Part shown: positions 22,394 through 37,830 of the stretch, one piece after another
How the letters are laid out: the number at the start of each line of letters is the position of its first letter
Numbering within the stretch: the stretch's first letter is position 1
Made by a program: the position numbers and the translations under genes
The notes under the pieces: model-generated
Databases searched by the model: none
The model's input: the letters and a program-made list of their open reading frames with translations, nothing else
Told to the model about the DNA's origin: nothing
Source of the DNA: Escherichia coli
GTDB lineage: Bacteria; Pseudomonadota; Gammaproteobacteria; Enterobacterales; Enterobacteriaceae
NCBI RefSeq assembly: GCF_003334305.1
Contig: NZ_QOWS01000004.1
Length of the DNA: 64,000 nucleotides
Direction: 5' to 3' (one strand)

Positions 22394-23545
22394 TTACCAG
22401 GCGGTATGGTAAAGCTCTACAATATCCTCAAGCGTTGCTTCACGCGGGTTGCCACCGGTACAAACATCATCCAGTGCCGCCTGCGCCAGTGCCGGAATGT
22501 CTTCCTTGCGTACACCAACATCACGCAAATGTGGCGGAATACCGACATCACGGTTGAGAGCAAACACCGCTTCAACAGCGGCATTACGCGCCTCTTCCAG
22601 GCTCATACCTTCCACTTTCACGCCCATAACGCGCGCGATATCGCGGTACTTCTCACCGGTAAAGTCAGCGTTATAGCGCATGACATGCGGTAACAGGATG
22701 GCGTTCGCAACACCGTGTGGAGTGTTGTAAAACGCGCCCAGTGGATGCGCCATACCATGCACCAACCCTAACCCAACATTCGAGAAGCCCATACCCGCAA
22801 CATACTGCCCGAGCGCCATTTCTTCTCCGGCATCCTTATCACCAGCAACCGATCCTCGCAGCGCCCCAGCAATGATTTCAATCGCTTTAATGTGCAGTGC
22901 ATCGGTTAGTGCCCACGCGCCACGGGTAATATACCCCTCAATAGCATGAGTGAGCGCATCGACACCCGTCGCGGCTTTCAGCGCTGGAGGCATACCATCC
23001 ATCATGTCAGCGTCAATAAACGCCACCTGCGGGATATCATGCGGATCAACGCAAACAAACTTGCGCCGTTTCTCTTCGTCAGTGATCACGTAGTTAATGG
23101 TCACTTCTGCCGCAGTACCTGCTGTGGTAGGAATTGCCAGAATCGGTACACTGGGTTTATTGGTCGGGGAAAGCCCTTCCAGGCTACGCACATCGGCAAA
23201 CTCCGGGTTGTTGCTGATAATGCCAATCGCTTTACAGGTATCCTGTGGAGAACCACCACCAATAGCGATCAGGTAATCCGCGCCGCTATTCTGGAATACA
23301 CCGAGCCCTTCTTTGACGACAGTAATTGTTGGGTTGGGCACTACGCCGTCGTAAATCGCCCATGCCAGCCCTGCAGCATCCATCTTATCGGTCACTTTCG
23401 CCACCACGCCGCATTGCACCAGCGTTTTATCGGTGACGATCAGCGCCTTCTGATAACCACGGCGTTTCACCTCATCGGTTAAAGCCCCAACAGCACCCCG
23501 ACCAAACCATGCCGTTTCGTTCAGAATCATTCTGTTAGCCATCAT
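22394..23545 (-). CDS. fucO: L-1,2-propanediol oxidoreductase (lactaldehyde reductase)
   Basis: ORF MMANRMILNETAWFGRGAVGALTDEVKRRGYQK..., an iron-containing alcohol dehydrogenase. The true start may be the second Met (23542), giving 382 aa. Confidence 0.95.
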   Translation of the reverse strand: MMANRMILNETAWFGRGAVGALTDEVKRRGYQKALIVTDKTLVQCGVVAKVTDKMDAAGLAWAIYDGVVPNPTITVVKEGLGVFQNSGADYLIAIGGGSPQDTCKAIGIISNNPEFADVRSLEGLSPTNKPSVPILAIPTTAGTAAEVTINYVITDEEKRRKFVCVDPHDIPQVAFIDADMMDGMPPALKAATGVDALTHAIEGYITRGAWALTDALHIKAIEIIAGALRGSVAGDKDAGEEMALGQYVAGMGFSNVGLGLVHGMAHPLGAFYNTPHGVANAILLPHVMRYNADFTGEKYRDIARVMGVKVEGMSLEEARNAAVEAVFALNRDVGIPPHLRDVGVRKEDIPALAQAALDDVCTGGNPREATLEDIVELYHTAW

Positions 23546-23569
23546 CCTTCTCCTTGTTGCTTTACGAAA

Positions 23570-24217
23570 TTACTCTTCAATCCGTAACCCATAGGTTTTG
23601 AATTTCTCCAGCACTACGGCAATCTCTTCATCGCTCAGCACTGGCACCGGGTCCGTAATCGCCAGGGTCGTCAGGTAAAGTTGCGCCAGCACTTCAACTT
23701 CATGCGCCAGCCATAACGCTTTTTCCAGATTCACCTCACAAGCGATAAGCCCATGATGTTGTAACAAAGTTGCCTTACGATTTTTGAGAGCCAGCGCAAC
23801 ATGTTCAGAAAGTTCGCGTGTTCCAAAGGTCGCATAAGGCGCGCAAGGAATAGAATTACCACCTGCCGCCGCAATCATGTAGTGAATAGCGGGGATCGGT
23901 CGGTTAAGAATGGAAACTGCTGTGCAATGAACGGCATGATTGTGAACAACCGCGTTGGCATCCGGTCTGCTTTGATAGGCCGCCATATGGAAACGCCATT
24001 CGCTTGAGGGGAGCTTTCCTTCCTCATGTTTACCGTTGCCATCAATAAAGACAATATGCGACTCCGTCAGTTTTTCATATGGAATGCCTGTAGGCGTAAT
24101 CAGCATCCCATCCTGATAACGTACACTGACGTTCCCCGCTGTCCCCTGGTTCAGTCCCAGGCGGGTCATTTCCAGGCAAGTGTCAATAATCTGACGAGCA
24201 AGTTTATTTCGTTCCAT
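23570..24217 (-). CDS. fucA: L-fuculose-1-phosphate aldolase
   Basis: 215-aa ORF MERNKLARQIIDTCLEMTRLGLNQGTAGNVSVRYQDGMLITPTG... (class II aldolase). Confidence 0.96.
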   Translation of the reverse strand: MERNKLARQIIDTCLEMTRLGLNQGTAGNVSVRYQDGMLITPTGIPYEKLTESHIVFIDGNGKHEEGKLPSSEWRFHMAAYQSRPDANAVVHNHAVHCTAVSILNRPIPAIHYMIAAAGGNSIPCAPYATFGTRELSEHVALALKNRKATLLQHHGLIACEVNLEKALWLAHEVEVLAQLYLTTLAITDPVPVLSDEEIAVVLEKFKTYGLRIEE

Positions 24218-33224: not shown

Positions 33225-33430
33225 ACTTCCTGAGCCGGAACGAAAAGTTTTATCGGAATGCGTGTTCTGGTGAACTTTTGGCTTACGGTTGTGATGTTGT
33301 GTTGTTGTGTTTGCAATTGGTCTGCGATTCAGACCATGGTAGCAAAGCTACCTTTTTTCACTTCCTGTACATTTACCCTGTCTGTCCATAGTGATTAATG
33401 TAGCACCGCCTAATTGCGGTGCTTTTTTTT
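33225..33430 (+). ncRNA. gcvB: GcvB small regulatory RNA
   Basis: No ORF. Begins ACTTCCTGAGCCGGAACG, carries the GU-rich seed tract GTTGTGATGTTGTGTTGTTGTGTTTGC, and ends in the intrinsic terminator gcaccgcctaattgcggtgc + T8. It is divergent from gcvA, the canonical arrangement. Confidence 0.93.
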
Positions 33431-33446: not shown

Positions 33447-33674
33447 TTACTGATCCAGTTCGACCATCTCTTTCACGTCAGTACGGTTGATCTGCTGTTT
33501 GTTGCCATTAGCGTCTTTATACGAAATCATACCGGTATCGTTATCAGTCTGTGGTTTGCCGTCAGAGACGATGGTACGTCCGTCATTGGTGTGCATCACA
33601 TAGTTCGAACCGGAACAGGCGCTCAGGGCAAAAGTCAGCATACAGGCAGAAATAATTGCGGCAGTCTTTTTCAT
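33447..33674 (-). CDS. ygdI: Small lipoprotein YgdI (DUF903)
   Basis: [79 protein letters not shown] with lipobox LSAC. The start is taken at the second Met; the ORF track gives 33677. Confidence 0.88.
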
Positions 33675-33865
33675 CATCTTCTCCTTAAAGCGATTAATAA
33701 ATCTTAATAGTATTGATTAACAGGCTAAAATTAACGCCTAACACTATTCAGCATATGTTACTTACGCGGCTTCGCCAGGATATCCAGATAATTCTGATGG
33801 TTAGCACTCTCCTTGTATCAAAGTGAATTTTGCGTCACGATCGGTGCATCAAGCCGAGGAGTACC

Positions 33866-37753: not shown

Positions 37754-37830
<77 letters not shown>

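Follow-up and report, generated by a model that had tools for sequence, protein, structure and literature searches.

Why does Escherichia coli keep two genes, ygdI and ygdR, for very small lipoproteins of one and the same family, and what do these proteins do? The two genes are on opposite strands and 27.7 kb from each other in the 64,000-nucleotide stretch of E. coli DNA analyzed here (hereafter, the window; NCBI RefSeq assembly GCF_003334305.1, contig NZ_QOWS01000004.1). Here, we identify ygdI and ygdR as an anciently duplicated pair of DUF903 lipoprotein genes, each maintained in its own syntenic context, and place their products with near-certainty on the inner leaflet of the outer membrane (OM), facing the periplasm. 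Overall, we somewhat favor a picture in which YgdI and YgdR would be OM-hugging periplasmic binding modules, the two copies having been retained through different stress regulons. In this picture, the parts that concern identity and location are near-certain, while the parts that concern a binding module and subfunctionalization are much less certain.

RefSeq, Pfam, NCBIfam and the Protein Data Bank (PDB) already contain the genes, the family, the paralogy and the structures, and the pair as such is already known. The first-pass annotation of the window, made from the sequence alone, did not mention that the pair belongs to an ancient family that is fully annotated and has seven structures solved, and this takes away most of the novelty of its proposal. 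Its statement that the pair has no known function stands: the searchable literature contains no biochemical function, no ligand, no partner and no protein-specific loss-of-function phenotype for YgdI or YgdR, and no paper with ygdI or ygdR in its title or abstract. A strongly conserved, stress-induced and structurally solved pair of OM lipoproteins still without a known partner or phenotype poses a modest but genuine question. The constraints added here are a near-absent tether, a β2-β3 loop that is conserved family-wide, and the lack of a conserved partner gene in the neighborhood. Together, they suggest that a partner should be sought at the inner face of the OM rather than at the peptidoglycan.

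That ygdI and ygdR are paralogs is supported by direct comparison. In BLASTP, YgdI and YgdR are 60% identical over 72 amino acids (E=1e-31). For the mature domains, i.e., from Cys20 onward, 31 of the 53 aligned positions are identical (58%), and the alignment score lies 17.4 standard deviations above those of 2000 shuffles, among which the top identity was 49%. Thus, the paralogy proposed in the first-pass annotation holds far above background, and the motif that it had read in the two proteins, DGRxIxxDGKPxxDxDTGxxSYxDxxGNxxQINRxDV, fits both. The gene names and the DUF903 assignment that it gave agree with RefSeq, Pfam (PF06004) and NCBIfam (NF033216). Both proteins match PF06004 over model positions 1-49 of 49 (YgdI, E=8.7e-24; YgdR, E=2e-24) and score far beyond the curated cutoff of 42 bits of NF033216, the "YgdI/YgdR family lipoprotein" profile (113.2 and 105.9 bits, respectively). 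Each protein therefore combines a profile match above threshold with a lipobox, as membership in this family entails; the two are its founding members and differ from it in nothing. A tblastn search with both mature domains detected no third copy in the window, the matches starting at 33617 and 61476.

Beyond the window, a phmmer search against 1.84 billion representatives returned 150 clusters at E ≤ 0.001. The family extends past the Gammaproteobacteria, e.g., to Niveibacterium and Pseudodesulfovibrio, and a lipobox is present in 96 of 124 size-matched homologs. Two long proteins in the same search (P0036, 627 amino acids; P0053, 591 amino acids) were rejected as family members: they are repeat proteins rich in D, T, G and S, and apparently represent compositional matches. 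A metagenomic protein of 791 amino acids (P0147) was likewise not counted, its match being long and broken into multiple stretches. This protein contains at least five repeats of the form G(Y/V)xLVDANG...SYTDAQGNKH with a weak likeness to the DUF903 β-hairpin (E=7e-4, 5 stretches), which may reflect either repetition of a DUF903-like module or mere composition. One source names a Rouxiella homolog BamE (SmpA/OmlA); because Pfam and NCBIfam scans gave no SmpA_OmlA match, we regard this name as an annotation artifact. Some Enterobacterales have further DUF903 paralogs in addition to YgdI and YgdR. A 77-amino-acid form is widespread in Enterobacter (P0028), and Erwinia sp. OLTSP20 has an extra paralog (L007, 6001-6222) near ldcA (Peptidase_S66), a gene for an SLT lytic transglycosylase, and ycgR.

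How old is the duplication? At the nucleotide level, ygdI and ygdR are 59% identical, and at third codon positions 36% identical; the synonymous divergence (dS) of the pair is undefined by the Nei-Gojobori method (NG86), the synonymous sites being saturated. Moreover, each copy keeps its own synteny across the Enterobacterales, with the order csdA-ygdI-gcvB-gcvA for one and mutH-(ygdQ)-ygdR-tas for the other. YgdR-type genes follow mutH, with or without ygdQ, and precede tas in Salmonella, Enterobacter, Musicola (Pectobacteriaceae) and Rouxiella (Yersiniaceae), and this arrangement holds down to 53-59% full-length identity (60-66% in the mature domain). YgdI-type genes adjoin csdA/csdE down to 58% identity. 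Given this saturation and the agreement of sequence type with synteny, we conclude that the duplication is ancient and older than the split of these Enterobacterales families. The ratio of nonsynonymous to synonymous divergence (dN/dS) is 0.04 for ygdR of E. coli versus Salmonella and 0.075 for ygdI versus the orthologous locus L014, demonstrating strong purifying selection on both copies. In E. coli itself, where the source of the window is the chromosome, the ygdI locus (a 701-bp stretch, at ≥95% identity) is present in 5426 of 5426 complete genomes, in which it is annotated as ygdI and csdA, and the ygdR locus (a 551-bp stretch annotated as ygdQ, ygdR and tas) is present in 5424 of the 5426. 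The ygdI region of the window is 100% identical to that of many E. coli genomes. For each of the two queries, there is one match in the E. coli genome collection to a record classed as a plasmid, which may mean that a plasmid carries a piece of the chromosome or that the replicon was misassigned.

Bacterial lipoproteins are lipidated at the lipobox Cys by Lgt, LspA and Lnt and are sorted to the OM by the Lol pathway, except that in E. coli an Asp at position +2 keeps a lipoprotein in the inner membrane. The lipobox signal peptides that the first-pass annotation had recognized are present as LSAC in YgdI and VSGC in YgdR, both of which fit the lipobox pattern [LV]-[AS]-[GA]-C, and Ser occupies position +2 in each protein. 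In none of 76 clean family lipoproteins is this position D; the residues seen there are S, A, M, G and T. From these sequence features, Cys20 is predicted to be lipidated in both proteins, and because +2 is Ser and not Asp, both are predicted to reach the OM, where they would sit on the inner leaflet and face the periplasm. Published data on YgdI are in agreement: YgdI-His acts as an OM lipoprotein in preparations of OM and outer membrane vesicles (OMVs) and peroxide treatment enriches it in vesicles (PMC8284480), and its use there as OM/OMV lipoprotein cargo agrees with the predicted location. ygdI is also given as a "verified lipoprotein" in a separate study (PMC8767339).

The mature parts of the two proteins are acidic (9 D+E versus 6 K+R in YgdI; 11 versus 5 in YgdR) and consist of a domain of ~50-55 residues that folds as a five-stranded Sm-like/SH3-like β-barrel, as in 2ra2, 3bdu and 2jn0. 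Seven PDB entries cover the family (2ra2, 5cai, 3bdu, 2jn0/3fif, 2rd1, 2rb6 and 2k57), all from structural genomics and all titled "putative lipoprotein"; E. coli YgdR is represented by 2jn0 (NMR) and 3fif (X-ray), and Salmonella YgdI by 2ra2. A search for papers on these entries located no functional study. Only ~4 residues separate Cys20 from the first strand, β1, and with a tether this short the barrel would lie flat against the OM with the peptidoglycan out of reach. Five columns of the mature domain are invariant or nearly so (C1, G13, P22, D35 and G38), and Y6, T10, D12, K21, D25, T28, G29 and Y33 are also strongly conserved. The conserved Gly and Asp residues are located at hairpin turns, and the longest conserved segment outside the strands is the β2-β3 loop, GKPxxDxxTG. 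Among four distant homologs (from Niveibacterium, a metagenomic lineage, the extra paralog of Erwinia, and Pseudodesulfovibrio), there is no conserved neighbor gene, and each homolog is solitary in an unrelated context.

Based on the absence of a catalytic motif and of a conserved partner gene, we suggest that YgdI and YgdR are most likely small nonenzymatic modules, each a ~55-residue acidic Sm-like barrel behind a lipoprotein signal peptide encoded by an anciently duplicated gene, that would bind or stabilize an OM-proximal partner. Because the β2-β3 loop is the most conserved nonturn stretch of the family, this loop together with Y33/D35 is our candidate contact site.

The second part of the favored picture concerns the reason for having two copies. 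ygdI is RpoS dependent in E. coli and Salmonella (PMC5437024; PMC6153362), and a ygdI::yfp reporter strain has been employed beside an rpoS mutant (PMC13162491); in Citrobacter, ygdI is down-regulated in a ΔcpxRA mutant. ygdR is listed as Rcs induced upon peptidoglycan damage (PMC5105897). We suggest that the two copies were kept by regulatory subfunctionalization, in which ygdI would respond to RpoS in stationary phase and acid, with Cpx influence in Citrobacter, and ygdR would respond to the Rcs envelope-damage phosphorelay, such that either alarm could supply the same kind of module. In these respects, the pair resembles OsmB, OsmE, Slp, Blc, YbaY, SlyB and MliC, which are also short OM-sorted lipoproteins induced by RpoS, Rcs or envelope stress, occur in the same induced gene lists, and for the most part have no known partner. 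However, these proteins have unrelated folds and sequences and show no Pfam or NCBIfam cross-match with YgdI/YgdR, and the likeness is one of regulation and location only.

The upstream regions provide candidate elements for such regulation. In an alignment of E. coli, Salmonella and Enterobacter, two blocks are conserved upstream of ygdR, TTTAAGATTTTCC and ACTATTAT. The second contains the candidate −10 hexamer TATTAT, which is TATGAT in Enterobacter; a sigma-70 scan did not call this hexamer, which lacks a good −35, as might be expected of a promoter that depends on an activator. We considered and rejected an exact RcsB box for ygdR, as the spacing in the conserved TAAGATTTTCC is one base short of the consensus and the element is box-like only. 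Upstream of ygdI, a sigma-S-type −10 sequence, CAATACT, at 33709-33715 was also rejected, not being conserved in L014, and a conserved TATGCT at 33750-33755 is an alternative −10 candidate.

Several points weigh against the picture of a binding module retained in two copies by divergent regulation. No published experiment ties YgdI or YgdR to a ligand or a phenotype, and the conserved gene neighborhood indicates no partner, all four distant homologs being solitary. Most of the conserved residues are Gly, Asp or Pro at turns and could have a purely structural role. The regulatory split is not clean because both genes respond to LolCDE inhibition (ygdI up 25- to 53-fold and ygdR up 8- to 12-fold; PMC5105897), to an acid shift (PMC2270276) and to cathelicidin treatment (PMC6737244). 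At the sequence level, the likeness to an RcsB box in the ygdR upstream region is imperfect, and the alignment of ygdI upstream regions revealed no conserved −10 element for sigma-S. Finally, a ΔygdI mutant has the acid resistance of the wild type (PMC2676305).

The joint induction by these three treatments is equally a point in favor of ygdI and ygdR as redundant back-ups with the same function and overlapping expression, kept by a dosage benefit under stress and not by divergent regulation. The close similarity of the mature domains, which share the same conserved columns, and the lack of an acid-resistance phenotype of the single ΔygdI mutant also fit with redundancy. However, plain redundancy is seldom stable over a timespan in which dS saturates and synteny is fixed across an order; moreover, the literature gives the two genes different primary regulators, and the ygdI and ygdR upstream regions share no similarity. 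We, therefore, grant redundancy a minor but real share of our belief and continue to prefer retention through different stress regulons.

A different explanation places the importance of ygdI partly in its transcription and not only in its product. GcvA and GcvB regulate the one-carbon pathway, and, as noted in the first-pass annotation, ygdI adjoins the gene for the small RNA GcvB, which ends 16 nt from the ygdI stop codon. The same annotation had described ygdI and ygdR as monocistronic. For ygdI, this is forced by the divergent csdA and the convergent gcvB; for ygdR, it is likely, given hairpins after both ygdQ and ygdR, although the T tract of the ygdR terminator is weak and read-through into tas may occur. 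A terminator scan called the hairpin in the gcvB/ygdI gap on the + strand only, on which it constitutes a strong intrinsic terminator of GcvB. For ygdI, no other hairpin is available on the − strand, and here the 8-bp stem (z=−3.45) is preceded by an A-tract and followed by a poor U-tract. Because termination at this shared hairpin is good in the gcvB direction alone, transcription of ygdI may continue into gcvB in antisense orientation. Sigma-S-driven transcription of ygdI could in this way lower GcvB in stationary phase, by an antisense effect or by polymerase collision. The short distance between the two genes, the conservation of the convergent arrangement in L014, and the observation that ygdI transposon mutants, like hfq mutants, are fitter under the one-carbon-pathway drugs trimethoprim and sulfamethoxazole (PMC8767339), are in line with this possibility. 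If it were correct, a lipoprotein gene would have a second role in regulating amino-acid and one-carbon metabolism, and the antifolate fitness of ygdI insertions might be explained by polar or antisense effects on gcvB. By contrast, the YgdI protein is strongly conserved and is detected in proteomes, arguing that ygdI is more than a transcription unit, and ΔygdI does not reproduce the acid phenotype of ΔgcvB (PMC2676305). We consider it distinctly unlikely that such read-through is part of the selectable role of the ygdI locus.

YgdI and YgdR could also be periplasmic inhibitors of or immunity proteins against hydrolases or toxins, similarly to MliC, PliC, Ivy or orphan immunity lipoproteins of type VI secretion systems (T6SS). 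Lol inhibition induces ygdI together with mliC and ivy (PMC5105897), a DUF903 cluster in Serratia shows a statistical correlation with one type of T6SS (PMC12165300), and small periplasmic lipoproteins without an enzymatic motif would be suited to such a role. However, both genes are core genes of E. coli, and their fixed loci and dN/dS of 0.04-0.08 are unlike those of fast-evolving immunity genes linked to effectors. No locus examined has an effector-like neighbor, and neither protein matches MliC, PliC or Ivy in sequence or fold. Thus, we rate a function in inhibition or immunity as very improbable and retain the binding or stabilizing module.

The resemblance of the barrel to Sm, LSm and Hfq proteins is one of fold only, and YgdI and YgdR are not members of the Sm family. 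Their sequence identity to Hfq is ~10%, an Sm1/Sm2 motif is lacking, and Pfam scans gave no LSM or Hfq family match for either protein even at E ≤ 10. Sm, LSm and Hfq proteins meet RNA in the cytoplasm or nucleus, whereas YgdI and YgdR are exported and lipid anchored and have no access to cytoplasmic RNA. Moreover, the former proteins form rings, whereas YgdR is treated as a monomer. Crystals of family members contain 6-8 chains, and two members are single chains by NMR. Least probable of all is therefore that YgdI and YgdR assemble Sm/Hfq-like rings on the inner face of the OM as a stress-induced scaffold akin to the lipoprotein cages around porins, considering this distance from LSM and Hfq, the single chains in solution, and the inclusion of 3FIF/2JN0 in a benchmark of X-ray/NMR pairs whose proteins are described as monomeric (PMC10475850).

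The positions of the features discussed are collected in the table. The first-pass annotation had placed ygdR exactly and the two genes, correctly, on opposite strands; for ygdI, the end at 33447 stands, while the start at 33677 has to be moved to 33674. The list of open reading frames (ORFs) had a 76-amino-acid ORF at 33447..33677(−), whereas the RefSeq start is the second ATG, giving 75 amino acids. Three observations support the second ATG as the correct start. First, orthologous loci have AAGATG in the start region, versus ATGATG in E. coli. Second, the spacing to the AAGGAG Shine-Dalgarno sequence is 6 nt for the second ATG but only 3 nt for the first. Third, the NCBIfam profile match in YgdI starts one residue past the Met of the second ATG. 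The Shine-Dalgarno sequence of ygdR is GAGGA, 7 nt upstream of its ATG.

Table. Positions in the window of ygdI, ygdR and the elements associated with them
Feature	Position	Strand	Basis
ygdI coding sequence, 75 amino acids + stop, DUF903 lipoprotein	33447-33674	-	ORF; RefSeq WP_000750398.1 "YgdI/YgdR family lipoprotein"
ygdR coding sequence, 72 amino acids + stop, DUF903 lipoprotein	61419-61637	+	ORF; RefSeq "lipoprotein YgdR"
ygdI signal peptide, residues 1-19, lipobox L-S-A then Cys20	33618-33674; Cys20 codon 33615-33617	-	Sequence
ygdR signal peptide, residues 1-19, lipobox V-S-G then Cys20	61419-61475; Cys20 codon 61476-61478	+	Sequence
ygdI Shine-Dalgarno AAGGAG	33681-33686	-	Invariant in three aligned orthologous upstream regions
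gcvB small RNA gene, convergent neighbor of ygdI	33225-33430	+	Rfam RF00022, 199 bits, full model
GC-rich hairpin AGCACCGC/GCGGTGCT in the gcvB/ygdI gap	33402-33423	.	Terminator scan; RNA fold
Terminator-like hairpin 3' of ygdR, 10-bp stem, tail AGATTTTTCT	61642-61666	+	z=−2.9
Conserved element TTTAAGATTTTCC upstream of ygdR, putative, imperfect RcsB-box likeness	61335-61347	+	
Candidate −10 hexamer TATTAT of ygdR, in conserved block ACTATTAT	61385-61390	+	Upstream alignment

Three minor observations concern the DNA around the two genes. lgt, the product of which is the diacylglyceryl transferase of the first step in lipoprotein maturation, is situated between ygdI and ygdR (~55-57 kb, by homology with 23058-23933 of locus L002 of strain 504239); its position between two lipoprotein genes is probably coincidental. 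tas is an intact ORF of 346 amino acids in the window (61745-62785); in strain 504239 (L002, 29493-30533), it is annotated as a pseudogene carrying an internal stop. Lastly, the gap between mltA and amiC contains one tRNA-Met gene in the window (37754-37830) and three in tandem in the near-identical strain 504239, a copy-number variation of the tRNA array.
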